A DNA stretch of 21,531 nucleotides from a virus. Taxonomy: Duplodnaviria > Heunggongvirae > Uroviricota > Caudoviricetes. Every line of letters begins with the position of its first letter. The first letter of the stretch is position 1. The stretch is taken from IMG/VR virus record IMGVR_UViG_2698536335_000017. One strand, 5' to 3'. The translations under genes were made by a program, and so were the position numbers. Shown piece after piece: positions 1 to 18,978 of the stretch. The notes below the pieces were generated by a model that ran no database searches, had not been told where the DNA came from, and was given only the letters and a program-made list of their open reading frames with translations.

Positions 1-1284
1 TTACTTCTTCGCCTCTGCAACCACTTTACTACCCACGCCGCGGTTATTGTATTCCCACATGCGGTTGTAGTTAGTGTCATTCAGATTGCGCTGTATTTCG
101 TCGTTATCATCTACGCTGCCGGTATTACCCGCAAACGGACGATTAGAGATCACCGCATCGGCCCACGGTTTAGCCGTGTTAAAACCTTCGTTGATGGCGC
201 TATCACGGATCACCACCTGACCGTTGGTATTGGCATCAACATCCAGCGAGCGGCCCAGTTGCGCCACACCATCACCGAAAGCATTGAAACGGCTGTTTAC
301 GGCGAGGAAACCGTAGTAAATGTTGGACAGCGTAGCCGGTGCAAACACATACGCTTCTTGCTGAGTACGTGAGTTCACCACGCGGAATTCGGTGTTATCG
401 AACACCACTGCGCCGCGACCAGAAACGATATCCACATCCCCTTCAATGTAGCTGTTGGTCACCAGCGTACGCGGCTGACGATTCGTTTCCAGACGGTTCT
501 GCACACCGCTGTTGGTGACAAAGAAGGTGTTCTGACGACCGAGAATGTTAACGTTGTTAATCTGTACCTGGTCACCATCAGTACGCAGTGCCACCGCCGG
601 ATGGTTACCTGCATCTACGCTATCGCCCAGCGTGTTTTCGATGGTCAGATTTTGCAGTTGCAGGCCATTGTTTTGTGACCAGAAGACCGCAGAGCAGAGA
701 ACACCGATACTGTCGCTGCGTTTGCTCTGGCAGCTATCGTACATATACCACGCTGGTTTACCTGGCATATATTTGCCGCGCGGGTTGACGTCGTGACGCC
801 AGTCGGCAGGGCTCATGCCACCATCAAGGGAAAGCCCAATCTTCACATCAATCGGTTTTTCACCTGTACCGTACAGAGTAATTCCACCCGGAGCGGCAGG
901 GACATATACCGTTCCCTGATACTCACCAGGCATCACGGCAATATACTGGCGCTTGTTGGTACGCTTGATAATTGCCGCATCTACCGCCGCCTGAATCGTG
1001 GTATGCGTTACACCTTGAGTGCCCGCCGGGCCGACAACAAAGTCAGGTTGCGCAGGCAGGGTAATCGGGGAAGGATTCCACGCTGCTGCACCTGGTGTCA
1101 GGGATGCAAAATAGTGTTGAGCATCGAAATTCTGCGCTTCTTTTGCCGACAGAATCGGGCGAGAAGAGGTACCAGGCGCGGTTTGATCAGAAGGACGTTG
1201 ATCGGGCGGGGTTGAGCTACAGGCGGTCAGCGTCACGCCAAAAGCCAATGCCAGCGCCAGACGGGAAACTGAAAATGTGTTCAC
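1..1284 (-). CDS. ybhC: Host gene: YbhC-like pectinesterase-family outer-membrane lipoprotein (putative acyl-CoA thioesterase), full length 427 aa
   Basis: Complete ORF with signal peptide and lipobox (LTAC). It lies immediately beside the lambda att core, as ybhC does at attB in E. coli. Identity is from recall of the locus, not a search. Confidence 0.8.
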   Translation of the reverse strand: MNTFSVSRLALALAFGVTLTACSSTPPDQRPSDQTAPGTSSRPILSAKEAQNFDAQHYFASLTPGAAAWNPSPITLPAQPDFVVGPAGTQGVTHTTIQAAVDAAIIKRTNKRQYIAVMPGEYQGTVYVPAAPGGITLYGTGEKPIDVKIGLSLDGGMSPADWRHDVNPRGKYMPGKPAWYMYDSCQSKRSDSIGVLCSAVFWSQNNGLQLQNLTIENTLGDSVDAGNHPAVALRTDGDQVQINNVNILGRQNTFFVTNSGVQNRLETNRQPRTLVTNSYIEGDVDIVSGRGAVVFDNTEFRVVNSRTQQEAYVFAPATLSNIYYGFLAVNSRFNAFGDGVAQLGRSLDVDANTNGQVVIRDSAINEGFNTAKPWADAVISNRPFAGNTGSVDDNDEIQRNLNDTNYNRMWEYNNRGVGSKVVAEAKK

Positions 1285-1330
1285 AGGTTGCTCCGGGCTA
1301 TGAAATAGAAAAATGAATCCGTTGAAGCCT

Positions 1331-1345
1331 GCTTTTTTATACTAA
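1331..1345. other. attL: attL core (common core O) of lambda-type site-specific recombination; host B arm to the left, phage P' arm to the right
   Basis: Exact 15-bp lambda core GCTTTTTTATACTAA, preceded by attB-like TTGAAGCCT and followed by P'-arm sequence with Int arm-type repeats. Confidence 0.9.
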
Positions 1346-1418
1346 GTTGGCATTATAAAAAAGCATTGCTTATCAATTTGTTGCAACGAACAGGTCACTA
1401 TCAGTCAAAATAAAATCA
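1346..1418. promoter_or_regulatory. P' arm of attL with Int arm-type binding sites (P'1-P'3) and IHF H' site
   Basis: Sequence GAACAGGTCACTATCAGTCAAAATAAAATCATTATTTG carries three arm-type repeats; upstream TTATCAATTTGTTGCAACGAAC resembles the H' IHF site. Assigned from recalled lambda attP. Confidence 0.75.
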
Positions 1419-2489
1419 TTATTTGATTTCAATTTTGTCCCACTCCCTGCCTCTGTCATCACGATACTGTGATGCCATGGTGTCCGACTTATGCCCGAGA
1501 AGATGTTGAGCAAACTTATCGCTTATCTGCTTCTCATAGAGTCTTGCAGACAAACTGCGCAACTCGTGAAAGGTCGGCGGATCCCCTTCGAAGGAAAGAC
1601 CTGATGCTTTTCGTGCGCGCATAAAATACCTTGATACTGTGCCGGATGAAAGCGGTTCACGATGAGTAGATGCAATTATGGTTTCTCCGCCAAGAATCTC
1701 TTTGCATTTATCAAGTGTTTCCTTCATTGATATCCCGAGAGCATCAACATGCAATGTTGTAGGGATGGCAATTTTTACGCCTGTTTTGCTTTGCTCGACA
1801 TAAAGATATCCATCTACGATATCAGACCACTTCATTTCGCATAAATCACCAACTCGCTGCCCGGTAACAACAGCCAGCTCCATTGCAAGTCTTAGCCAAC
1901 ATGGTGATGATTCTGCTGCTTGATAAATTTTCAGGTATTCGTCAGCCGTAAGTCTTGATCTCCTTACCTCTGATTTTGCTGCGCGAGTGGCAGCGACCGG
2001 GTTTGTTGTTATATGGCCTTCAGCTATTGCCTCTCGGAATGCATCGCTCAGTGTTGATCTGATTAACTTGGCTGACGCCGCCTTGCCCTCGTCTATGTAT
2101 CCACTGAGCATTGCCGCAATTTCTTTTGTGGTGATGTCTTCAAGTGGAGCATCAGGCAGCCCCCTCCTTATTGCTTTAATTTTGCTCATGTAATTTATGA
2201 GAGTCTTCTGCTTGATTCCTCTGCTGGCGAGGATTTTTTCGTAGCGATCAAGCCATGAATGTAACGTAACAGAATTATCACTGTTGATTCTCGCTGTCAG
2301 AGGCTTGTGTTTGTGTCCTGAAAATAACTCAATGTTGGCCTGTATTGCTTCAGTGATTGCTATCCTCCTGTCTCGGCCTAATCCAAACTCTTTACCCGTC
2401 CTTGGGTCCCTGTAGCAGTAATATCCATTGTTTCTTATATAAAGATTAGGGGGTAAATCCCGGCGCTCATGACTTCGCCTTCTTCCCAT
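1419..2489 (-). CDS. int: Tyrosine integrase, lambda Int (356 aa)
   Basis: ORF translation matches lambda Int as recalled (MGRRRSHERRDLPPNLYIRNNGYYCYRDPRTGKEF ... HELRSLSARLYEKQISDKFAQHLLGH ... Y near C-terminus). Adjacent to att core, overlaps xis as in lambda. Confidence 0.95.
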   Translation of the reverse strand: MGRRRSHERRDLPPNLYIRNNGYYCYRDPRTGKEFGLGRDRRIAITEAIQANIELFSGHKHKPLTARINSDNSVTLHSWLDRYEKILASRGIKQKTLINYMSKIKAIRRGLPDAPLEDITTKEIAAMLSGYIDEGKAASAKLIRSTLSDAFREAIAEGHITTNPVAATRAAKSEVRRSRLTADEYLKIYQAAESSPCWLRLAMELAVVTGQRVGDLCEMKWSDIVDGYLYVEQSKTGVKIAIPTTLHVDALGISMKETLDKCKEILGGETIIASTHREPLSSGTVSRYFMRARKASGLSFEGDPPTFHELRSLSARLYEKQISDKFAQHLLGHKSDTMASQYRDDRGREWDKIEIK

Positions 2490-2685
2490 TTCTGATCCTC
2501 TTCAAAAGGCTACCTGTTACTGGTCGATTTAAGTCAACCTTTACCGCTGATTCGTGGAACAGATACTCTCTTCCATCCTTAACCGGAGGAGGGAATATCC
2601 TGCATTCGCGCACCCATCGACGAACTGTTTCAAGGCTTCTTGGGCGTCGCTGGCGTGCATTCCACTCCTGAAGTGTCAAGTACAT
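2467..2685 (-). CDS. xis: Excisionase, lambda Xis (72 aa)
   Basis: Translation MYLTLQEWNARQRRPRSLETVRRWVRECRIFPPPVKDGREYLFHESAVKVDL matches lambda Xis; 3' overlap with int. Confidence 0.95.
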   Translation of the reverse strand: MYLTLQEWNARQRRPRSLETVRRWVRECRIFPPPVKDGREYLFHESAVKVDLNRPVTGSLLKRIRNGKKAKS

Positions 2686-2791
2686 CGCAAAGTCTCCGCA
2701 ATTACACGCAAGAAAAGCCGCATTGATGCGGCGATGGTAGGTCTGGATATCATTGAGCCATGAACAGGCCTCATCGAGTGTGAGGCTGTGG

Positions 2792-3136
2792 TTAGTCCTT
2801 TCGTAACTCGCTGATTCTCCTGTAAGTCTCTGGTGCTTTGTTTCCGTGTATCTTCATTTCAGACTTCAACAGAGCAACGAGGGAATCCCATTCGTTGAGG
2901 ATGCCTTTGAATGCCGGAACGCGCTTTGCAACCTTGTCGAATGAATCTCTGATTTCTGGAATCTTCTCAACAAGTGCAACGCATCGTCGGAAGTCTGCTG
3001 CGTCATGGGGAGCGCCGAAGTGATGACCATAGATATTCTTTTTCAGGCCACATGCGATTGAGGCAAGAGTTGCGCTACTGATGCCAACATCGCCAGTCGA
3101 TTGCCATTTCAAAACCTTCATAGACAAATCTGACAT
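2792..3136 (-). CDS. Hypothetical phage protein (114 aa), early-left accessory region
   Basis: Complete ORF with upstream SD-like GGAGACAAGAA. No family recognised. Confidence 0.5.
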   Translation of the reverse strand: MSDLSMKVLKWQSTGDVGISSATLASIACGLKKNIYGHHFGAPHDAADFRRCVALVEKIPEIRDSFDKVAKRVPAFKGILNEWDSLVALLKSEMKIHGNKAPETYRRISELRKD

Positions 3137-3164
3137 TTCTTGTCTCCAATAAAAAAAACCTCCA

Positions 3165-3332
3165 TCAGGCGGCTTGGTGTTCTTTCAGTTCTTCAATTCG
3201 AATATTGGTTACGTCTGCATGTGCTATCTGCGCCCATATCATCCAGTGGTCATAGCAGTCATTGATGTTCTCTGCTTCGATAACTCTGTTGAATGGTTCT
3301 CCATTCCATTCACCTGTGACTCGGAAGTGCAT
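3165..3332 (-). CDS. Small hypothetical protein (55 aa), found by hand translation (below track cutoff)
   Basis: ATG at 3332 preceded by GGAG with 7-nt spacing on the minus strand; translation MHFRVTGEWNGEPFNRVIEAENINDCYDHWMIWAQIAHADVTNIRIEELKEHQAA. Confidence 0.4.
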   Translation of the reverse strand: MHFRVTGEWNGEPFNRVIEAENINDCYDHWMIWAQIAHADVTNIRIEELKEHQAA

Positions 3333-3404
3333 TTATCATCTCCATAAAACAAAATCCGCCGTAGCGAGTTCAGATAAAAGAAATCCCCGCGAGTGCGAGG
3401 ATTG

Positions 3405-3689
3405 TTATTCATTGCCGATATTCACCTTTATCGCGAACACCTTTACCGGTTTATCACCGAAGTGCGGATGTGTGATTGTCTTGATTTCATATCCGTCATA
3501 CGGAACATCAATTCTGCGGCTGGAATCGTCGCGCTTCGGATATCCCTTTGTGATAATCAGGCGGTCATACTCCCGGAACATAATTCGCTTATTCCAATAG
3601 TCATTACACAGGCGATACTCTTCCGTTTTCTCTCCTCGAATCATGGCATCGAAGTATTCACCTTTGACGGCAAGTTGTAGGTTAGCCAC
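3405..3689 (-). CDS. Small phage protein with ASCH-like motif (94 aa)
   Basis: Motif G-E-K-T-E-E-Y-R fits the ASCH G-x-K-x-x-E-x-R signature. Assignment from motif only. Confidence 0.4.
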   Translation of the reverse strand: MANLQLAVKGEYFDAMIRGEKTEEYRLCNDYWNKRIMFREYDRLIITKGYPKRDDSSRRIDVPYDGYEIKTITHPHFGDKPVKVFAIKVNIGNE

Positions 3690-3984
3690 GGTTAACCTCC
3701 TGCGGAGTAGCCTTTACAAGCACTGGTGCAAATCCATCTTCATTAAGGTTATGAATATAGACTTCTGTTCTCCTGCGCTCTTCAACGTTTAATATTGTTT
3801 CTGGATCATAAACCCATACTTTCATTCGACTATTCCATGAAGAAATCGCTTCAGATCTAGTTCGTTTTTCTGGTCCTTGGGCACCACATTTGCATGACAC
3901 ATAGCGCATTTTCCCTCTGATACTGAATGAGTATCCGATGTTAAGCACAGTGGAACCACAGAATGGGCAGCGATATAGATTCAT
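3682..3984 (-). CDS. Lar-family restriction-alleviation zinc-ribbon protein (100 aa)
   Basis: N-terminus MNLYRCPFCGS ... CKCGAQGP ... EAISSWNSR has the two Cys pairs and conserved AI-x-xWN-xR of the Lar family, plus a C-terminal extension. Confidence 0.65.
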   Translation of the reverse strand: MNLYRCPFCGSTVLNIGYSFSIRGKMRYVSCKCGAQGPEKRTRSEAISSWNSRMKVWVYDPETILNVEERRRTEVYIHNLNEDGFAPVLVKATPQEVNRG

Positions 3985-4598
3985 AAATCATCCACCTTAG
4001 GCGCAGCTGAGACAGCAACATTCCAGAACTCAGAAAACATATTGTATGCACCAGATAGATTGGAAGTAGCATACCCTCCAAGCTCACTTCTAATCTGAAC
4101 GGCTCTCATCATTTCCGGGGTTAACTCCTTCGGCACCATAACCCAACCATCCGGAGTTACCGGAGAGTTGCCACCGGGAATATTTTCCGGAATATTTTGT
4201 TGTGCGTTTTGTGGTTGTTCTGATTTACCCTGAAGCATGGCGGCGCGGCAGGCGTTCCAGCCAGCTGTTCGCCCAAGCGCGTAAACTTCAGATGGATCAA
4301 GATAATCAATGTCATGCCCGTCCTCATCGTCGTTCTCAGGTAATGCAGCAGGTACTACCGGTACTGGCGGAGCGGCGTAGACCTCAATAATTCCATTATC
4401 AATAGGCCATTCTCCATCCTTGAGGTAGTCACTTGTGCCGTCAACTTGCTGTTCTGCAATGTGGAATGCACCTATTGGTTTTGCTTCCAGCGATGCCAGA
4501 GCAATCCGTGCCAGTTCCATTTGTTCGCCACTAGTAAGTCCGTTATCAAGCGGGGATTTAATGAACAATTCGATACGTTCTTTAGTGATAGTGCTCAT
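3981..4598 (-). CDS. Hypothetical phage protein (205 aa from the internal start MSTITKERIE)
   Basis: The six-frame ORF (to 4697) overlaps the upstream gene by about 100 nt. The ATG at 4598 has SD AGGAGAG and sits 2 nt after the upstream stop, so the shorter start is preferred. Confidence 0.5.
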   Translation of the reverse strand: MSTITKERIELFIKSPLDNGLTSGEQMELARIALASLEAKPIGAFHIAEQQVDGTSDYLKDGEWPIDNGIIEVYAAPPVPVVPAALPENDDEDGHDIDYLDPSEVYALGRTAGWNACRAAMLQGKSEQPQNAQQNIPENIPGGNSPVTPDGWVMVPKELTPEMMRAVQIRSELGGYATSNLSGAYNMFSEFWNVAVSAAPKVDDL

Positions 4599-4599
4599 A

Positions 4600-5157
4600 T
4601 CACTCTCCTTTGATGCGAATGCCAGCTGCGCTTGCTGATTCTTCATATGCGCGTTTAGCAGCGTTAAGGATTGCTGCCAGTGGCGTATAGCCGCCATCCA
4701 TTCGGATTGTGTTGTGGATGCCAGCCATTGTGTCGCGCAATTTGCTGTGGCTAGCAGACAGTTCTGCTATGCACTTCTCTGCGGCATCGGCTCGATCTTT
4801 TTCACGCTGGAACATTTTGTGAGTGCGGTCTATAGCTTCGATTCGTGCCGCTGATGTCTTCTGCACGGCTTCAAGCTCAACACGCAGCTTCCCAACCGTA
4901 AGAGCAATATCCTCGTTCTTCTGGTCGCGGCGTTTGATGTATTGCTGGTTTCTTTCCCGTTCATCCAGTAGTGCCAGCACGGTTTCTGGCCCGGTCAGAA
5001 ATTTGAAGGCGTTGAGCGCATCAATATCCACACCGTAATCCTTAAGTTCCTGTTCAGTTAACAAATCATCATCAACTGGCAACATTAACAGGCGTTCCAT
5101 TGCCGGAATTGCACGCTCTGCCGCCTCACGCAGTGCCTGATAGTCAATCTTGCTCAT
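4600..5157 (-). CDS. Ea22-like coiled-coil early protein (185 aa)
   Basis: Charged, heptad-rich sequence in the int-proximal early-left region, the position of lambda Ea22. Family call is by composition and position. Confidence 0.45.
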   Translation of the reverse strand: MSKIDYQALREAAERAIPAMERLLMLPVDDDLLTEQELKDYGVDIDALNAFKFLTGPETVLALLDERERNQQYIKRRDQKNEDIALTVGKLRVELEAVQKTSAARIEAIDRTHKMFQREKDRADAAEKCIAELSASHSKLRDTMAGIHNTIRMDGGYTPLAAILNAAKRAYEESASAAGIRIKGE

Positions 5158-5729
5158 TGGATGACTCCTTTACGAAGCTGTTCGGCGATATCTTCGAGAA
5201 CGCCATCAGAGAATGAACGGTCAAAATCGCCTTCCGGCGCATTGGCCATAAACTCAGTAGAGGTAAGAATCATCCGGGCAATATCAGCGGCGTTCTTCGC
5301 AGTATCATCAATAAAACCAGCTTCCCAGGCAGCCAGCATTCTGTTCGCCACAAAGTAAGCGCCCTCCTTGCGTGCTTCAGTCTTCACTTCAGGCAGAAAA
5401 GCATCGGTGGCTGGGGTTTCAGTAATATCATCTTCCCATTCGCTAAACTCCTCACGACAAAAGTCATTAAATTCCTTCTCAGATTGCTTAAGCGAGGAAT
5501 TTTCAGCAGCCATCTTCGCGCATTTAGCCTCAAGGTTATCAATCGTGATTCCAGCAGAACGACACTCCCGCAACGCCGTTTCTAGTTTTGATTCAAGTTC
5601 ACCGAACTTACGGACAAGATATTCATCGTTTGTTTCGTCAACCTTTAAATCACTTGGGATGCATTTACCTTTCAGAAAACCATCCATCTCAATTAGTGTC
5701 ATTTGTTTCATTTCTTCCCACTCCGCCAC
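5154..5729 (-). CDS. Ea22-like coiled-coil early protein, second copy (191 aa)
   Basis: Acidic coiled-coil ORF overlapping the next gene by 4 nt. Confidence 0.45.
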
Positions 5730-5872
5730 ATCGCATTCAGATATTTGTTGTCATTAACAGAACCGAAACTCTTTCTCTTAAGCAATTCCTCTCTCGATGG
5801 CATTGGCTTTGCGCGTTGGCGAATAATCATTTCTGCCGGAAGAATGCCGGGATTGTATGCAAGTCCTCTCAT
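5708..5872 (-). CDS. Small hypothetical protein (54 aa from internal start MRGLAYNPG)
   Basis: ATG at 5872 is preceded by GAGGAA with 6-nt spacing. The longer six-frame form overlaps the upstream 97-aa gene in another frame. Confidence 0.3.
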
Positions 5873-5882
5873 GGTAAATTCC

Positions 5883-6176
5883 TCAGTCATTACTGATAGC
5901 GCCATAGCGTGAGCGGTAATTACGCAGGCGCGGGTCAATTTCAGGGAAGTGGGTATATGTGGCTTTGCGGAATGGTCGGATTGATGTCTGGTAAATTCGC
6001 TCGCGTTCTTCTTTCTCTGCAAGCCATATACAATGGCGAAATTCCTTTTCCTCTTTCGTTTCCTGCGGTAGCGACATTATCCGATCGTAGTTTTTTCTGA
6101 ATTTATCCAGCACCTCCGATACGGAATTGCCGGAACAGCGGCGCGCGTCATCCGCACCATACAGAGGCGCTGGCAT
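5883..6176 (-). CDS. Hypothetical phage protein (97 aa)
   Basis: Strong SD AGGAGA four nt upstream of the ATG; sits between exonuclease and Ea22-like genes. Confidence 0.5.
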
Positions 6177-6192
6177 GGTTTTCTCCTGTTGA

Positions 6193-6741
6193 TTATTTAG
6201 CTAACTTTTTCCAGATCGCTGAAACGTATTTGGCTTGGTGAATGGCATCATCAAGCGCGTTGTGGCGAGTTCCTTTGAATGGCATATCTCGCTTAGGGTC
6301 TAATCCTATTACCTTCCCAAGTTCGACGATTGTTCTTACGTCGCGGTCATTCCACCACTGCCACGGAACTGGCTGCCCTGTCAGCGAATAACTGTTTCGG
6401 AGAATAACGCAGTCAAATGATGCTCCATTCCCCCAAACCTGAACGAATTTGTGGTTAGCGTTCTTTATGATGAATTCAGATAACCATGAAAGAGCCGTTG
6501 AAAGCTCCTGAGTGTTGCTGGTTAGCGATTTTCTGGCTTCTTCACTCTGTTCCAGCCACCATAAAATCGTTGAAGCGTCAGGACGCGCCCGATATCGCAT
6601 TGATGACTCAAGCGAGATATTTACCGAGAACTCTTCTCCTGTTTCTCCGGTATTCGGGTCAAAGAATACCGCCCCAATAGAAATAACTGGCGCATATGGC
6701 CCGTTGCCCATTGTTTCAAGGTCAACCATTAAGTGATTCAT
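6193..6741 (-). CDS. DEDDh-type 3'-5' exonuclease (DnaQ-like fold, 182 aa), recombination module
   Basis: N-terminal MVDLETMG (D-x-E motif I) and C-terminal H-x-x-x-D (HNALDDA) typical of DEDDh exonucleases; directly downstream of ssb and the annealing protein. Confidence 0.6.
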   Translation of the reverse strand: MNHLMVDLETMGNGPYAPVISIGAVFFDPNTGETGEEFSVNISLESSMRYRARPDASTILWWLEQSEEARKSLTSNTQELSTALSWLSEFIIKNANHKFVQVWGNGASFDCVILRNSYSLTGQPVPWQWWNDRDVRTIVELGKVIGLDPKRDMPFKGTRHNALDDAIHQAKYVSAIWKKLAK

Positions 6742-6749
6742 GTAAGTCC

Positions 6750-7255
6750 TTAAATTGCGTGAATAGCGTGACGAGGGAAGGGGAGAGTTACTGGTGCAAA
6801 GGGTATATCGTCGTCAAAATCCATCGGAGGTTCGTTGTGTTGTGCTGGTGATGATTGCTGCTGTGGCTTCTGTGATTGCCTGCTGGCTGCTTGTTGTTTG
6901 CTGTCGCCAATTCCGCCAAGCATTTGCATCACGCCATTAATTCCGACATGAACCTCGGTTGTGTAACGGTCTTGCCCTGACTGGTCTTTCCACTTTCTGG
7001 TTCTCAGCATTCCCTCGAAATAAATCTGATCACTTTTTTCACATACTGCCCCACGACCTCAGCCAGTTTCCCGGATACAGCAACACGATGCCATTCAGTC
7101 AATTCCTTTTGCTCGCCAGTATTTTTATCTCGCCATTGTTCTGACGTGGCTATTGTCAGGTTAGCGAACGCTGTACCTGATGGTGAGTATCGAACTTCCG
7201 GGTCTTGTCCTACCCGACCAAGGATAATCACCTTATTTACGCCTCTGCTTGCCAT
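6750..7255 (-). pseudogene. ssb: Phage single-stranded DNA-binding protein gene disrupted by a -1 frameshift and carrying a 15-aa extension past the DDDIPF tip
   Basis: Two adjacent ORFs (7004..7255, then 6750..7010 in another frame) together align to SSB ([23 protein letters not shown] ... TEWHRV ... / [20 protein letters not shown] ... [11 protein letters not shown]). The frame breaks at an A6 run (plus-strand T6 at 7034..7039), where one G appears missing relative to the expected AAAAAAGGTGATCAG. Confidence 0.7.
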
Positions 7256-7963
7256 TTATGCCGCCTGTTTTAGTTCGTTAACTCTGATGTTCATTACCTG
7301 AACGCATTTAGCCTGCGCCTCCTCATTGCCAGCCATTAATTGCCAGTCACGCTGATAACGCTCGATGAGTTTTTTCTTGTCAGTTTCTGTTGACGCATAA
7401 TCGCTGAAGTCTTTCAGGATTTGTTCGCAGTCAACCGATGGAGATTTCTGGTTGGTATTTTCTGGTGATGGTTTGTTATCTGATGCTGGTATTGCCCATC
7501 CCGGCAGCGATGGAGGGAGCCAGTAAAATCCTGTTCCATCCTTGAGTTTTGCCCTGTGCCATCCCTGCTTTTTATCGAGAGATGTTTGTGCGAAACCTTC
7601 CTCAAGGTTATACAGATACCGACCGATTCCCCACTGAACGGCAGCGCGCTTCATTGCACCGGAACGACCACCTTTGACGGCTTCTACCTGCGTGTTTTCA
7701 GCAGCATCCCATTTGGTTACCCATTCGGAATCAATCTTTATTGATATGCCGCATTCAACGCCGCCGTTGTTGGGAATATCGCGGTATTCATTGCGCCATC
7801 CTGCTTTGCCGCAAACATCGTCCAGGCGTTTCATGATTGCCCGGTTCGTTACATAAGCCAGCACCATAGCCCACACTTTGCCATCGCGTGTTTTACCGCT
7901 TTGCTGTATTCGCCATTCGATATCTTCAGGGCTGAATGGCTCATCGAATTTATTCAAATCCAT
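7256..7963 (-). CDS. Single-strand annealing protein, Rad52/Sak-like (235 aa)
   Basis: Central AMKRAAVQWGIGRYLY matches the Rad52/Sak signature G-I-G-R-Y-L-Y. It sits where lambda has bet, upstream of ssb and exonuclease, with SD GAGGTG. Confidence 0.65.
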   Translation of the reverse strand: MDLNKFDEPFSPEDIEWRIQQSGKTRDGKVWAMVLAYVTNRAIMKRLDDVCGKAGWRNEYRDIPNNGGVECGISIKIDSEWVTKWDAAENTQVEAVKGGRSGAMKRAAVQWGIGRYLYNLEEGFAQTSLDKKQGWHRAKLKDGTGFYWLPPSLPGWAIPASDNKPSPENTNQKSPSVDCEQILKDFSDYASTETDKKKLIERYQRDWQLMAGNEEAQAKCVQVMNIRVNELKQAA

Positions 7964-8062
7964 AATTCACCTCAGAATGGACACGGCCCAAGGAAATAAC
8001 GCTGATTTAATACTTCAACTCGGGACAAATTAAGGCATACCCGCATTCCTTCGCGGTCGCCA

Positions 8063-8221
8063 TTATGGCGATACCAGAGAGCTTTCTGCGTGTACATGCG
8101 TCTCTGTAACTTGCTCTCCTTCACTGTGGTTGCAAGTGACATGAATATCTCCTTCGTTACCGATTAATTCTTTCATCTGACGAATGAATTCTTCGTCTGA
8201 CCAGTTATCTGTAAAACTCAT
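8063..8221 (-). CDS. Small hypothetical protein (52 aa) between kil and the annealing protein
   Basis: ATG overlaps the kil stop (ATGA); translation MSFTDNWSDEEFIRQMKELIGNEGDIHVTCNHSEGEQVTETHVHAESSLVSP. Confidence 0.4.
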   Translation of the reverse strand: MSFTDNWSDEEFIRQMKELIGNEGDIHVTCNHSEGEQVTETHVHAESSLVSP

Positions 8222-8370
8222 TTCCTGCGATACCACGGATGGTTGATAGCTGATTTCATCGCTTTATTTGCTTCAAGCCACATTTTTGAATCACCAATAA
8301 ATCTGGCTATTACTGCTTTGTTCTGTGCAGCACGAAGCATCTGGTGATTGATGGCTATTTCATTGCGCAT
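8218..8370 (-). CDS. kil: Kil-like host-killing protein (FtsZ inhibitor family), 50 aa
   Basis: Translation MRNEIAINHQMLRAAQNKAVIARFIGDSKMWLEANKAMKSAINHPWYRRK; the IARFIGDSKMW segment resembles lambda Kil (recalled ATFIGDEKMF). SD GGAGG, directly downstream of the cIII-like gene as in lambda. Confidence 0.6.
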   Translation of the reverse strand: MRNEIAINHQMLRAAQNKAVIARFIGDSKMWLEANKAMKSAINHPWYRRK

Positions 8371-8489
8371 AACGCCTCCAGTTGTTTCTTTGCTGCTCTG
8401 ATTAATTGTTTAACTCGGCGTGATAATTTAGATTCGTGCGGGTAGAAAGCGGACATGACGCCGCTACCCGCGAGCTGAAAGTGCATCAT
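8355..8489 (-). CDS. cIII: CIII-like FtsH inhibitor (44 aa from internal start with SD)
   Basis: Translation MMHFQLAGSGVMSAFYPHESKLSRRVKQLIRAAKKQLEALCAMK; AG-x-G then ES-x-L-x-R amphipathic segment as in lambdoid cIII. SD AAGGAG at 6-nt spacing. The 79-aa six-frame form would run through the upstream terminator. Confidence 0.55.
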   Translation of the reverse strand: MMHFQLAGSGVMSAFYPHESKLSRRVKQLIRAAKKQLEALCAMK

Positions 8490-8555
8490 GGGTAACTCCT
8501 TATATTTGATTGCATAACGAAAACGCCTCGAGTGAAGCGTTATTGGTATGCATAT

Positions 8556-8579
8556 AAAAAAGCCCTCACACTGGAGGGC
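8556..8579 (-). terminator. Intrinsic terminator in the pL operon (tL1-like, presumably N-suppressible)
   Basis: On the minus strand: GCCCTC-CAGTGT-GAGGGC hairpin (6-bp GC-rich stem) followed immediately by TTTTTT. Confidence 0.65.
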
Positions 8580-8672
8580 AAAGAAGATTTCCAATAATCA
8601 GAACAAGTCGGCTCCTGTTTAGTTACGAGCGACATTGCTCACATAGCAGACTCGCAAATCTGCTATAGGTGC

Positions 8673-8834
8673 TTATTCGCATCGCATGACAACATCAAAT
8701 TTTTCGAGATTACTTTGTCGCAACAATCCTTCTTCTACGCGGTCAGCTTTTCTATAATTATCAAATTCGAAATGTTTAATTACTTCTTTCGTTTCTCGCT
8801 CTATAACTTCAACAATGTATTTCTTATTCATCAT
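8673..8834 (-). CDS. Small hypothetical protein (53 aa) in an AT-rich segment
   Basis: ATG overlapping the upstream stop; translation MMNKKYIVEVIERETKEVIKHFEFDNYRKADRVEEGLLRQSNLEKFDVVMRCE. Low GC suggests a moron. Confidence 0.35.
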   Translation of the reverse strand: MMNKKYIVEVIERETKEVIKHFEFDNYRKADRVEEGLLRQSNLEKFDVVMRCE

Positions 8835-9164: not shown

Positions 9165-9488
9165 CTATTCGGCCTTATCTACATTCCTGAACCAAACGCA
9201 GATCGGACCGTCTTCTGTATCGTGAATCGAACCGACAAACCATCCTTCTCCATCTGGCATGCTTGGCTCCCATCCACTGATGTTTTGATTCCCATCTTCA
9301 AAATACGCGTCAATTACCGTTTGATTGTTGTCGTTTTCCATTTCAACAATTGATGATTCAATGCCATGCTGCTTGCAGAAAGATCTGAACTCATCAGCTG
9401 AAATTACCTCTCTATCCCCAAACAGGTTGGCGTATTCTGGGTGCGTCCAGTAGCCATCCTCGCTTCGCTCTACTACTAATGCTTCCAT
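9165..9488 (-). CDS. Hypothetical strongly acidic early protein (107 aa), first gene after N
   Basis: Complete ORF; roughly 25 Asp/Glu against very few Lys/Arg. Confidence 0.5.
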   Translation of the reverse strand: MEALVVERSEDGYWTHPEYANLFGDREVISADEFRSFCKQHGIESSIVEMENDNNQTVIDAYFEDGNQNISGWEPSMPDGEGWFVGSIHDTEDGPICVWFRNVDKAE

Positions 9489-12023: not shown

Positions 12024-12668
12024 ATGACATACGAAAATGACAAATTCCAGGTTCTGAAGAGCATGAAGGTGCCAGATGATTTTAAATCAAATGGCTTTGT
12101 TTATGTGCTTTCGAATGAGTGCATGCCAGGAATTTATAAGATTGGGATGACTAAGCATTCACCAGAAGTCAGGGCTAAAGAAATTTCAGCCTCTACTGGC
12201 GTTCCTAAGCCATTTAAGGTGATAGCAGCCTTTCATTCAAATAATCCCGCATCAGATGAAAAACTCATTCATAAAGCCTTTGCAAAAGAGAGGCTTAGTG
12301 ATAATCGAGAGTTTTTCAAGCTTGAAGATAATGATCTTTCTGAATCTCTAAATGAAATAAGGGCGCTGGTTGGCCCTGAAAGAAATGGCGAGACGGCAGA
12401 ATACGCAATTTACGACTCATTCATTTCTTTTCGCCATGAAAATGAGCTTGATCTTAATGAGGAGCTTATAGAGCAAGGTCTGGGTAGTGTAGTTGGTCAT
12501 CTTCCTGCGGTGAAAAATTTCCTTATTCGCGCCGGAATTGATTACGCGAAGCAACTGATAAGCAAATATAACTCATCGATAGTTATTAATACAGATGGCA
12601 GTGTGGTGATGGTTAAGTTTCTTGAAGCCCAATGCTTTGATGCGGAGGTTGGAAATGAGCCTGGCTGA
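12024..12668 (+). CDS. T5orf172 / MUG113-type GIY-YIG-like domain protein (214 aa) inserted between cII and O
   Basis: N-terminal GFVYVLSNECMPGIYKIGMT ... EVRAKEIS ... PFKVIAAFHS ... EKLIHKAFAKERLSDNREFFK fits the T5orf172 pattern. Strong SD AGGAG 5 nt upstream; C-terminal about 90 aa unassigned. Confidence 0.55.
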   Translation: MTYENDKFQVLKSMKVPDDFKSNGFVYVLSNECMPGIYKIGMTKHSPEVRAKEISASTGVPKPFKVIAAFHSNNPASDEKLIHKAFAKERLSDNREFFKLEDNDLSESLNEIRALVGPERNGETAEYAIYDSFISFRHENELDLNEELIEQGLGSVVGHLPAVKNFLIRAGIDYAKQLISKYNSSIVINTDGSVVMVKFLEAQCFDAEVGNEPG

Positions 12669-13497
12669 AGTATTTTACCTGCCGAAGAGTGAACCTGTTG
12701 AACAGGAGCGAAGAGTGGCTGATATCGATGATGGTTACACCAGATTCGCTAACGAGCTGCTGGAAGCTATCGCAAGTGCCGATTTAACCGCTCGCCAGTT
12801 GAAAGTTATGCTGGCCTACGTCCGGAAAACATATGGATTCAATAAGAAAACAGATCGAATAGCCGATGAGCAAATTGCTCAGTTAACAGGACTGTCAAGG
12901 CAGAATGTTAACAAGGCTAAAAAAGAACTGATTTCAATGAATTGCCTGTTTATGGATGGAAATCAAATCGGTGTAAACAGTGAGGTATCTGCGTGGCAAT
13001 TCAGCAAGTGTCTCCAAGTTAGCAACTTTGTCTCGAAGTTAGAGACAAAAAATGTCTCCAAATTAGAGACACTCAATGTCTCGAAGTTAGAGACACACAA
13101 AAGACATTCTTTAAAGACAAAAGAAAATATTAATAAACCCCCTATATCCCCCAAAAAGGTTTCTCAGAAGTTCGACCCGCTAGAAACAGAGTTGCCTGAT
13201 TGGTTATCAGCAGAAACATGGTTGTCGTGGGTTACCTATCGCAAGGAGATAGGTAAGTCGATCAAGTCTAAGCAAAGTGTAACTCAGGCTATCAACGTTC
13301 TAAGCAGAAGTCTGGAGAAGGGATATACACCTGAAGAAATTATAAACCAGAGCATCGCCAGTGGTTGGCAGGGGATTTTTGAGCCCAAGACTCCAAAGGG
13401 GAAATCTCAACCGAGGCCGCAGCATCGAGCTATGCAGGAAAACTTTGCCACCAAAGATTACGGACAAACTGAAATGCCTTCATGGGCGCAGGAGTGA
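12655..13497 (+). CDS. O: Replication initiator O-like protein (from ATG at 12655)
   Basis: N-terminal domain ERRVADIDDGYTRFANELLEAIASADLTARQLKVMLAYVRKTYGFNKKTDRIADEQIAQLTGL aligns with recalled lambda O; iterons lie inside the gene. SD GGAGG upstream of 12655; the six-frame start at 12622 is less likely. Confidence 0.85.
   Translation: MSLAEVFYLPKSEPVEQERRVADIDDGYTRFANELLEAIASADLTARQLKVMLAYVRKTYGFNKKTDRIADEQIAQLTGLSRQNVNKAKKELISMNCLFMDGNQIGVNSEVSAWQFSKCLQVSNFVSKLETKNVSKLETLNVSKLETHKRHSLKTKENINKPPISPKKVSQKFDPLETELPDWLSAETWLSWVTYRKEIGKSIKSKQSVTQAINVLSRSLEKGYTPEEIINQSIASGWQGIFEPKTPKGKSQPRPQHRAMQENFATKDYGQTEMPSWAQE
13009..13095. repeat. ori iterons: three 19-bp palindromic repeats (TGTCTC-N7-GAGACA) at 24-bp spacing plus one degenerate copy, followed by an AT-rich segment
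   Basis: Repeats at 13029..13047, 13053..13071, 13077..13095 (first and third identical); degenerate copy at 13009..13026. They encode the repeated VSKLET peptide in O; AT-rich DNA at about 13096..13160. Confidence 0.8.
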
Positions 13498-17627: not shown

Positions 17628-18587
17628 TTAAAAAAAGAAGGTGATTGCTCCATTTATAAATGAATAGTCATCCCCTGTCTTGAATTCTGATGTTACTTTA
17701 TTAAATGCTAGTGTGAAGGCTACAGGTGCATACCCAATTGTTGCGCCAACTTGATATTCATCAACAGTTTTGTTTAGCGATACTGTTGTTTGTTTCGTCT
17801 GTATTGTTTTTCCTTCGAGAGTATAGTTGCGATTGACATCTCGTCTTTCCATACCTGCAAAAATCTTGTATTTGAATCCGCTTGTATCGGACATATGCAT
17901 TAAACCACGGGGAGCCAGCAGACCAAAGCCATTATCCGAATTGAAGGTTTTATCATTACCAATGGCAATGGTTGCGCCATATGCTACATATTGAAATAAG
18001 TTTCCAGTAACAGCAGAAACTTCAGGGTATAATCCAACATTAGCACCTAAAATATCCATACTTGGTGTCATGGATAGCATCCCTTTTACAGTATAACCGT
18101 AGCGATTCTCTATTTGATCATCCCATGCATGATATTTTTCTGCCCCAATAATCTCATGAGCTTTATTTTGTACTTTCTGACCGCCTGCGTCGGGGCCAAC
18201 AACACCTATGTCAGTACCTAATCGATAGCGAATCCAGTCATTCGCAAGGGAGTTCCATTCAATACCAGTGTGAGTGTATGCACTAAAAGCTCTGTCTCCA
18301 GTTACAGCTGTGTTGTGTCTTTTATTACTGCCTGATGGAGAGTAAATATCTTGCGCAATATGGAGAGATAATTGGCTCGAGTCTGAGATATCGTGGCTAT
18401 ATCCCAGAAATAAGCCTTGTGAGTAATCATCTCTGTTTTCATGTTTATTGCCATAAATATCATTAAGTATTGGTTGAAACTTCCCTGCATCATCATTTGC
18501 TAATGATAATGCAAGGCTGTTCGCGATAGCTGAACACGTGGTAAATGACAGAGCAATAAAGACGCCAGCGATGACACTTTTTTTCAT
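17628..18587 (-). CDS. lpxR: Outer-membrane beta-barrel protein, probably LpxR-family lipid A 3'-O-deacylase (319 aa), prophage moron
   Basis: Signal peptide, C-terminal aromatic residues, alternating beta-strand pattern. Length equals Salmonella LpxR as recalled, and the predicted mature N-terminus NSLALSLAND puts Asn9-Asp10 where LpxR has catalytic N9/D10. Opposite strand, AT-rich flanks. Confidence 0.5.
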   Translation of the reverse strand: MKKSVIAGVFIALSFTTCSAIANSLALSLANDDAGKFQPILNDIYGNKHENRDDYSQGLFLGYSHDISDSSQLSLHIAQDIYSPSGSNKRHNTAVTGDRAFSAYTHTGIEWNSLANDWIRYRLGTDIGVVGPDAGGQKVQNKAHEIIGAEKYHAWDDQIENRYGYTVKGMLSMTPSMDILGANVGLYPEVSAVTGNLFQYVAYGATIAIGNDKTFNSDNGFGLLAPRGLMHMSDTSGFKYKIFAGMERRDVNRNYTLEGKTIQTKQTTVSLNKTVDEYQVGATIGYAPVAFTLAFNKVTSEFKTGDDYSFINGAITFFF

Positions 18588-18978
18588 ATGTTATTGTCTT
18601 CCTTTTTTTTGAATGGTGCGCGTATTTTACATACATGAGTTTGTAATACAAGGTGCGTAATCAATATGATGTTTTATAATTGCGTGAGACAATTGATTTA
18701 TTCGTTTTTTATTGTGGTTTTTATTATCTTTTAATGTAACGGTGTTTTTATTAAGTGTGTTTGCGTGGTGTTTTATGTTTTTTATAATTTTTATTTTATT
18801 AAATTTAAAAGTATTAGTAATGGCTATTCTATATAGCAATATAAGAACTGTTACAAAAAAAGGGGGGGCAATTACAGGTAGTTATGGATGATGAGTGAAA
18901 CAGATATTGGAGAACCGGGGAATGAATGATGTCTGAGTCTTATATATCAGAACTCCTTCGCTGTCGCTGGGGGCTCCT

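Follow-up and report, generated by a model that had tools for sequence, protein, structure and literature searches.

A probable pseudogenising single-nucleotide deletion in a prophage ssb gene, and a conserved 15-residue tail beyond the acidic tip in its intact relatives

The free C-terminal Phe of the ssDNA-binding protein SSB is regarded as the universal site at which more than a dozen genome-maintenance proteins dock. In E. coli, the partners of SSB bind the last residues of its acidic tip, and in the structures of ExoI with the C-terminal part of SSB (ExoI/SSB-Ct) the key contacts are made by the ring of the terminal Phe and by its free carboxylate. The chromosomal SSB of E. coli (1eqq, 4mz9) has the same OB fold, disordered linker, and acidic tip as the phage SSB described here once its reading frame is repaired. 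It ends, however, at the Phe of DDDIPF, whereas the phage subfamily adds 15 residues after this Phe and has a linker about 25 residues shorter. The carboxylate contacts have been discussed for the DnaG-SSB-Ct interaction (PMC5872125).

Among phages, a role of the SSB C terminus has been described for HK620, a lambdoid, P22-like phage whose SSB is encoded next to an annealing protein, as is the one studied here. Its C-terminal residues are needed for loading of Sak4 on SSB-coated ssDNA and for recombineering (Hutinet et al. 2018, PMC5928155). The HK620 protein ends canonically in NDYPPF, with a terminal Phe, and no extension past this Phe is described there (PMC5928155). By analogy, the HK620 SSB/Sak4 pair provides a precedent for the idea that the tail of a phage SSB can adapt it to particular partners. 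The nearest relatives of the gene in question are those for WP_000168274.1 in phages mEp235 (gp31), mEpX2, and HK75, which have the same DNA bar one G, the same gene order, and the same tail, and are intact there; the ssb genes of the Salmonella phages epsilon34 and g341c are about 90% identical in DNA to the intact phage gene.

The ssb gene and its prophage

We analyzed a stretch of 21,531 nucleotides (IMG/VR record IMGVR_UViG_2698536335_000017), here called the window, which turned out to be a mosaic lambdoid prophage beside ybhC. The ssb gene is the second of a minus-strand recombination module composed of a Rad52-like gene, ssb, an exonuclease gene, and a gene for an Abc2-type protein (Table 1). 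The stop of the Rad52-like gene abuts the ssb start, and the exonuclease gene begins 8 nt past the ssb stop. A scan of positions 6100-8700 for promoters and terminators found none inside ssb.

Table 1. Coordinates of the ssb fragments, the lesion, and the neighboring genes in the window
Feature	Position	Strand	Description	Basis
ssb, 5' fragment	7255..7004	minus	83 aa: 74 native codons plus 9 out-of-frame codons (VIRFISREC), then TGA	ORF list
ssb, 3' fragment	7010..6750	minus	86 aa, native frame, begins at internal Met81	ORF list
Lesion site	7033..7039	minus	A6 run (7039..7034), then a single G (7033); GG in intact genes	
SSB tip	6798..6815	minus	Codons of DDDIPF	Read from the sequence; aligned to the extreme C terminus of E. 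coli SSB 1eqq
Tail	6753..6797	minus	15 codons after the tip; stop TAA at 6752..6750	
Rad52/Rad22-like gene	7256..7963	minus	Single-strand annealing protein	Pfam PF04098, E = 5e-26; RefSeq annotation of relatives
Exonuclease gene	6193..6741	minus	DEDDh 3'-5' exonuclease (Rv2179c-like)	Pfam PF16473, E = 3.8e-73; annotation of relatives
abc2	5883..6176	minus	Abc2-type anti-RecBCD gene, last of the module	Pfam PF11043, E = 5.6e-63

The earlier, sequence-only reading of this DNA had reported that ssb is split at an A6 run into two open reading frames of 83 and 86 aa, and its coordinates and sequence proved exact in every respect. In profile searches, the two fragments fall one after the other on a single SSB model (phrog_44, positions 82-154 and 164-242). 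In the 5' fragment, the matches to the Pfam SSB family and to phrog_44 cover residues 1-74; the 3' fragment, which also matches phrog_18154, comprises the last part of the OB fold together with the disordered linker, acidic tip, tail, and TAA stop. When the frame was repaired in silico, the product was identical to the 168-aa WP_000168274.1 and matched Pfam PF00436 over residues 6-104 (E = 1.6e-36) and phrog_44 (E = 1.6e-66). Its residues 1-153 could be aligned with E. coli SSB (E = 6.6e-58), with the tip falling on residues 167-178 of 1eqq; in this alignment of PDB sequences the acidic tips of the two proteins are identical.

The module as a whole differs from that of a close relative. Positions 1-6176 of the window are gap-free and 99.98% identical to the STEC prophage L004, while from 6177 to about 7970 the latter has a different recombinase module. 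In this swap (L004 6677-7697) the exonuclease, ssb, and Rad52-like genes replace an ERF-family recombinase gene and a hypothetical gene; the flanks are 98-99.98% identical to those of the STEC prophage, with the left-hand junction at the 5' end of abc2.

Several further features of the prophage and its relatives were noted. An HNH endonuclease gene sits exactly between the Rad52-like gene and ssb (the 7255/7256 junction) in 17 of the 117 IMG/VR loci and also in L006 (2141-2608), and is absent from the window; it looks like a mobile homing-endonuclease insertion polymorphism. In the complete genome of E. coli 1008S13, ssb is intact and the Rad52-like gene (L002 838-1544) is annotated as frameshifted, its lesion being a 1-nt deletion at a position matching window 7289; this is a further instance of decay within this module. 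Between the nin region and Q, the window has, on the opposite strand, a gene for an lpxR-family lipid A deacylase (17628-18587, minus strand), a moron-like cargo shared with STEC prophages. A second frameshift suspected at 12024-13497 was rejected, as this region holds two genuine genes, one for a GIY-YIG nuclease and one for replication protein O. The former (12024-12668, plus strand, 214 aa) lies between cII and the replication-O gene, overlaps the start of O (12655), and is annotated as a separate gene in relatives.

The deletion in codon 75 and its inheritance

Alignment with three relatives (L001-L003) identified the lesion as a 1-nt deletion in codon 75 (GGT, Gly). Over 527 aligned bp, the window differs from both phage mEp235 and E. 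coli AZ147 by one missing G only, with no substitutions. The intact orthologues have GTGAAAAAAGGTGATCAG where the window has GTGAAAAAAGTGATCAG, and around the lesion GTGAAAAAAGGTGAT of the relatives becomes GTGAAAAAAGTGAT. The missing base belongs to the GG pair adjoining the A6 run, and the run itself is complete. A search for the intact GGT codon in orthologous genes had been proposed as a check, and codon 75 is indeed kept as GGT in mEp235 and AZ147. In the closest annotated relatives, the intact ssb is 507 nt long and encodes 168 aa; the intact gene for WP_000168274.1 is carried by the three phages named above and by many E. coli prophages.

The consequences for the fold were read from an AF2 model of an intact tail-bearing relative, not of the window copy. 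In this family member the OB fold is predicted with confidence over residues 7-114, and the linker, tip, and tail (residues 115-168) have a pLDDT of about 30. The frame that encodes the whole OB fold without interruption in the intact genes is broken in the window at codon 75, just after the helix formed by residues 63-71, so that strands 77-90, 96-104, and 109-114 are lost. Since the break removes three strands, we infer from the model that neither fragment is able to form an ssDNA-binding OB fold.

We then asked how the lesion is distributed. An exact look-up of the 83-aa product placed it on about 15 to at least 23 contigs, and that of the intact protein on at least 1000. The alleles were sorted by regular expression into A6G2 (intact), A6G1 (ΔG, the lineage of the window), and A5G2 (ΔA, a second allele), and the contigs with the 83-aa product were found to carry both of the lesions. 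The ΔG allele is present in the window and in L008, L011 (an ENA metagenome scaffold), L015 (Logan SRR8767890 and further samples), L016 (SRR14000921), and L134 (IMG/VR UViG_2671180643), all of which are 99.9-100% identical to the window. Of the contigs with the 83-aa product, CXZX01000024.1 of GCA_001277675.1 shares 100% identity with the window over 15,255 bp and represents the same genome or a clone of it. The ΔA allele occurs in L009, L010, L012, L013, L014, and L017, on haplotypes that are 1-2% divergent from the window and have different neighbors and integration sites. One member of the ΔG lineage, L011, joins window position 9283 directly to 14391 (locus position 5530) and lacks about 5.1 kb of the immunity/replication region, which reflects either a deletion or a misassembly.

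Both deletion alleles are rare. Among 117 copies in IMG/VR, 116 are intact, one is ΔG, and none is ΔA or has an additional A. In about 172 complete RefSeq E. coli genomes with this ssb allele, no 100% match to ΔG or ΔA was found; the two alleles were queried separately, as ΔA would score 98.6% against the ΔG query. An exact-pattern scan for ΔG in a one-genome-per-species collection, which holds a single E. coli genome, gave no match.

These data bear directly on the possibility that the genome truly has GG and that one base was dropped in sequencing or assembly. The position of the lesion next to an A6 run, the lack of both deletion alleles in the complete RefSeq genomes, and the visibly error-prone assemblies from which some ΔA contigs derive (L009, with four homopolymer deletions in 2 kb, and L013, with other split genes) are all in keeping with such an error. 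On the other hand, the base call was checked through independent assemblies, and ΔG turned out to be limited to one prophage haplotype yet present in several assemblies of separate origin. An error due to the sequence context would be expected on various haplotypes, so this pattern points to an inherited allele. Moreover, the identical local context was assembled intact on the at least 1000 contigs with the intact protein and on the 116 IMG/VR contigs, and the ssb indel is the only in-gene indel of the window relative to all the relatives fetched. Its remaining indels either lie in intergenic homopolymers (8561, 18705, and 18777) or at divergent mosaic junctions; compared with the nearest relative, TT is missing after an A6 run at 8561, T6 stands against T5 at 18705, and T6 against T7 at 18777. 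We therefore consider a sequencing or assembly error unlikely. Conceivably, all the ΔG assemblies go back to a single clone that was sampled widely, in which case the allele would still be real and their independence reduced.

The favored explanation, a real, recent, and lineage-specific pseudogenising mutation, is in our judgment very probably correct. According to it, the true loss of one nucleotide from codon 75, where the GG immediately 3' of the A6 run became G, would have shifted the ssb frame in one prophage lineage; translation would end 9 codons after the lesion, yielding only the first part of the OB fold and, judging from the fold, no functional SSB. A repressed prophage would experience no selection on its recombination genes, and A6GG would be a slippage-prone context. 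Because of the latter property, a second lesion (A6 to A5) could arise at the same place, and the A6GG site, with two lesions at one spot, appears to be a slippage hotspot. Part of this hotspot signal may be sequencing error, given the other broken genes in the L009 and L013 assemblies; L010, L012, and L014, by contrast, have no indel besides the ssb lesion except at divergent junctions.

A different possibility is that the frame is restored during expression, by a -1 ribosomal slip or by transcriptional slippage adding an A, so that a full-length SSB with Gly75 replaced by Ser (KKSDQ in place of KKGDQ) is made and the allele is a low-expression one and not a null. A described example of such a site is that of dnaX in E. 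coli, where a lysine-codon A run (A AAA AAG) is shifty and is accompanied by an upstream SD-like element and a downstream hairpin. The ssb lesion resembles it in that a -1 shift on a lysine-codon A run (GUG AAA AAA GUG) restores the frame, and exactly this shift is needed. In the ΔA allele (GUG AAA AAG GUG), a -1 slip on AAA-AAG would even recreate the exact wild-type protein, and the finding of two independent lesions at the same spot also fits recoding. Unlike in dnaX, however, the X XXY YYZ heptamer is out of phase, as the zero frame is GTG AAA AAA GTG and a G precedes the run. The site also lacks a downstream structure, and it shows no conservation as a place of frameshifting. A search for a stimulatory RNA structure in the 136 nt of 7075..6940 found none (z = +0.79; 157 of 200 shuffled sequences fold at least as well). 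The A6 run is shorter than those known to give appreciable transcriptional slippage. About 99% of the copies are in frame (116 of the 117 in IMG/VR), so that the two-frame arrangement is unconserved, and the more divergent homologues keep the K-G step without the A6 run, which argues against a conserved recoding signal. Low-level ribosomal slippage on G AAA AAA G may occur, and recoding as the explanation of the locus has, in our estimate, a small probability.

Still less probable is a functional split SSB, whose 83- and 86-aa products would reassemble or act apart, for instance with the second serving as a free decoy composed of linker, tip, and tail. The ATG of the 86-aa frame (7010..7008) overlaps the upstream TGA (7006..7004) as ATGCTGA, an arrangement that could permit reinitiation, and GAGGG lies just upstream. 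This GAGGG is, however, separated from the ATG by 1-2 nt only, less than a normal Shine-Dalgarno sequence requires, and Met81 occurs within the intact protein as an ordinary residue. Residues 75-80 are lost and 9 foreign residues gained, the OB fold of the AF2 model is cut between the helix and strand 77-90, and the split form is rare and restricted to its lineage. We regard this scenario as highly improbable.

Of the three explanations offered in the sequence-only reading, the true pseudogene is thus the one favored by the recurrence of ΔG on a single haplotype and the lack of any other in-gene indel, while sequencing error and frameshift-prone expression are disfavored. The frameshift itself is ordinary: a decaying prophage gene in a rare lineage.

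The 15-residue tail of the phage SSB subfamily

The 15-aa extension after DDDIPF had been noticed together with the frameshift, and the absence of a stop after the tip was viewed as part of the same defect. The extension is present exactly as described; it is not an anomaly, however, since the intact 168-aa orthologues end with the same 15 residues. As the tail is the normal, conserved C terminus of this phage SSB subfamily, it is unrelated to the lesion, and the notion of a missing stop had to be abandoned. Fifteen residues follow the tip Phe here and in 98 of the 120 homologue cluster representatives (66-93% identity), so that none of them has a free terminal Phe carboxylate at the tip. The tail-bearing homologues come from E. 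coli, Salmonella, Klebsiella, Citrobacter, Enterobacter, Kluyvera, and phage MAGs.

The 98 tails have the consensus [AS]P[VI]xLPFPRHx[IV][HY]x[IL]. The mean frequency of the top residue is 0.87 in the tail, compared with 0.64 in the linker, 0.97 in the tip, and 0.92 in the OB fold. In a divergent tail, SPVGLQYGKHRVYAL, as many as 28 of the 45 nucleotides differ, and the length, stop position, and residue pattern are kept. These comparisons indicate that selection on the peptide maintains the tail. In the AF2 model of the intact tail-bearing relative the tail is predicted to be disordered, with no intramolecular docking. Searches of PDB sequences with the full protein and with the tip plus tail found no chain that continues past IPF, all alignments ending at residue 153. 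A full-text literature search for the tail motif found no description of it, and more general searches on SSB tails turned up work on canonical tips only.

Within the close clade there are two alternative C termini, that of 168 aa (with a 165-aa variant) and one of 153 aa ending in ...NFDDEIPF. The 153-aa variants with the canonical tip (e.g., P0003-P0008) are more than 90% identical to the 168-aa form over the OB fold and linker and have the same Rad52-like neighbor, but they stop right after IPF. The extended form occupies about 108 of the 117 IMG/VR loci and is followed by the Abc2 or the exonuclease gene. The canonical form is found in 4 of the 117, always followed by a different gene of 155 aa. 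This fixed neighbor places a recombination junction inside the 3' end of ssb and makes the two C termini of the phage SSB alternative mosaic modules. The 155-aa gene next to the canonical-tip ssb (L010 8477-8944) encodes a Cys-rich product beginning with MITCKKCGENKPP... and replaces the exonuclease gene or abc2.

Two possible associations of the tail with neighboring genes were considered and rejected. A tie to the downstream exonuclease does not hold, since abc2 directly follows the tail-bearing ssb in most loci; nor does a tie to a Rad52-type partner, since in Klebsiella aerogenes prophages the tail-bearing ssb lies beside Sak4-like AAA_24 genes. In these Klebsiella aerogenes prophages a gene for a RelA_SpoT-domain protein of 390 aa (L138 1291-2463) is located just upstream, in the early-left operon.

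Extensions of the tip are also found farther away. Among the 149 nearest 50%-identity representatives, 78 end in PF and 11 have the tip plus a short extension; several of these 11 share related features, e.g., APIGLQYPALLSVM. Capped tips seem to have arisen or diversified repeatedly. The short extensions following DDDIPF in P0178, P0288, P0270, P0243, and P0305 are APIGLQYPALLSVM, GYLGLQYPMLLNCM, MGLGYDTARSAIYAL, SNYELRSVI, and SVWHPRKAWAAI, respectively.

That the tail buries the carboxylate of the terminal Phe is chemically reasonable and applies to the whole SSB subfamily. Because it removes the free alpha-carboxylate of the last Phe of the tip, the tail, by analogy with E. coli SSB, most likely alters the set of partners recruited by the phage SSB. 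More specifically, we tentatively propose, as a possibility that may well prove wrong, that the tail is a functional short linear motif which caps the Phe against host partners (ExoI, RecQ, PriA) and perhaps provides a new docking site, for either a phage or a host factor, or a degron. The pattern underlying this proposal is [AS]-P-V-x-L-x-[FY]-x-[KR]-H-x-[IV]-[HY]-x-[IL]-COOH. We presume a loose likeness of its VTLPF to clamp-binding hexapeptides such as QLSLPL, and we likewise take its end, ...RHAIHAI-COOH, to be loosely similar to the MuA-type ClpX signal RRKKAI, a C-terminal degron.

Bearing on phage recombination modules

The frameshift is of little weight: it is a marker of one lineage, and A6GG contexts collect real as well as artefactual 1-nt deletions. 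The tail is the only part of the locus with some novelty value, and it is a trait of the family, not a defect of the window locus. The capped-tip SSB belongs to a very common enterobacterial prophage family, being encoded by thousands of contigs as well as by phages mEp235, mEpX2, HK75, and epsilon34, and is apparently an uncharacterised variant; its interpretation as a cap concerns the intact family and not the broken copy of the window. If the tail redirects or blocks partners, this would be relevant to the coexistence of phage recombination modules with the host SSB and to the choice of cognate SSBs for recombineering. If the proposal is true, capped tips would be a hitherto undescribed means by which temperate phages shield their recombination intermediates from the genome-maintenance enzymes of the host.
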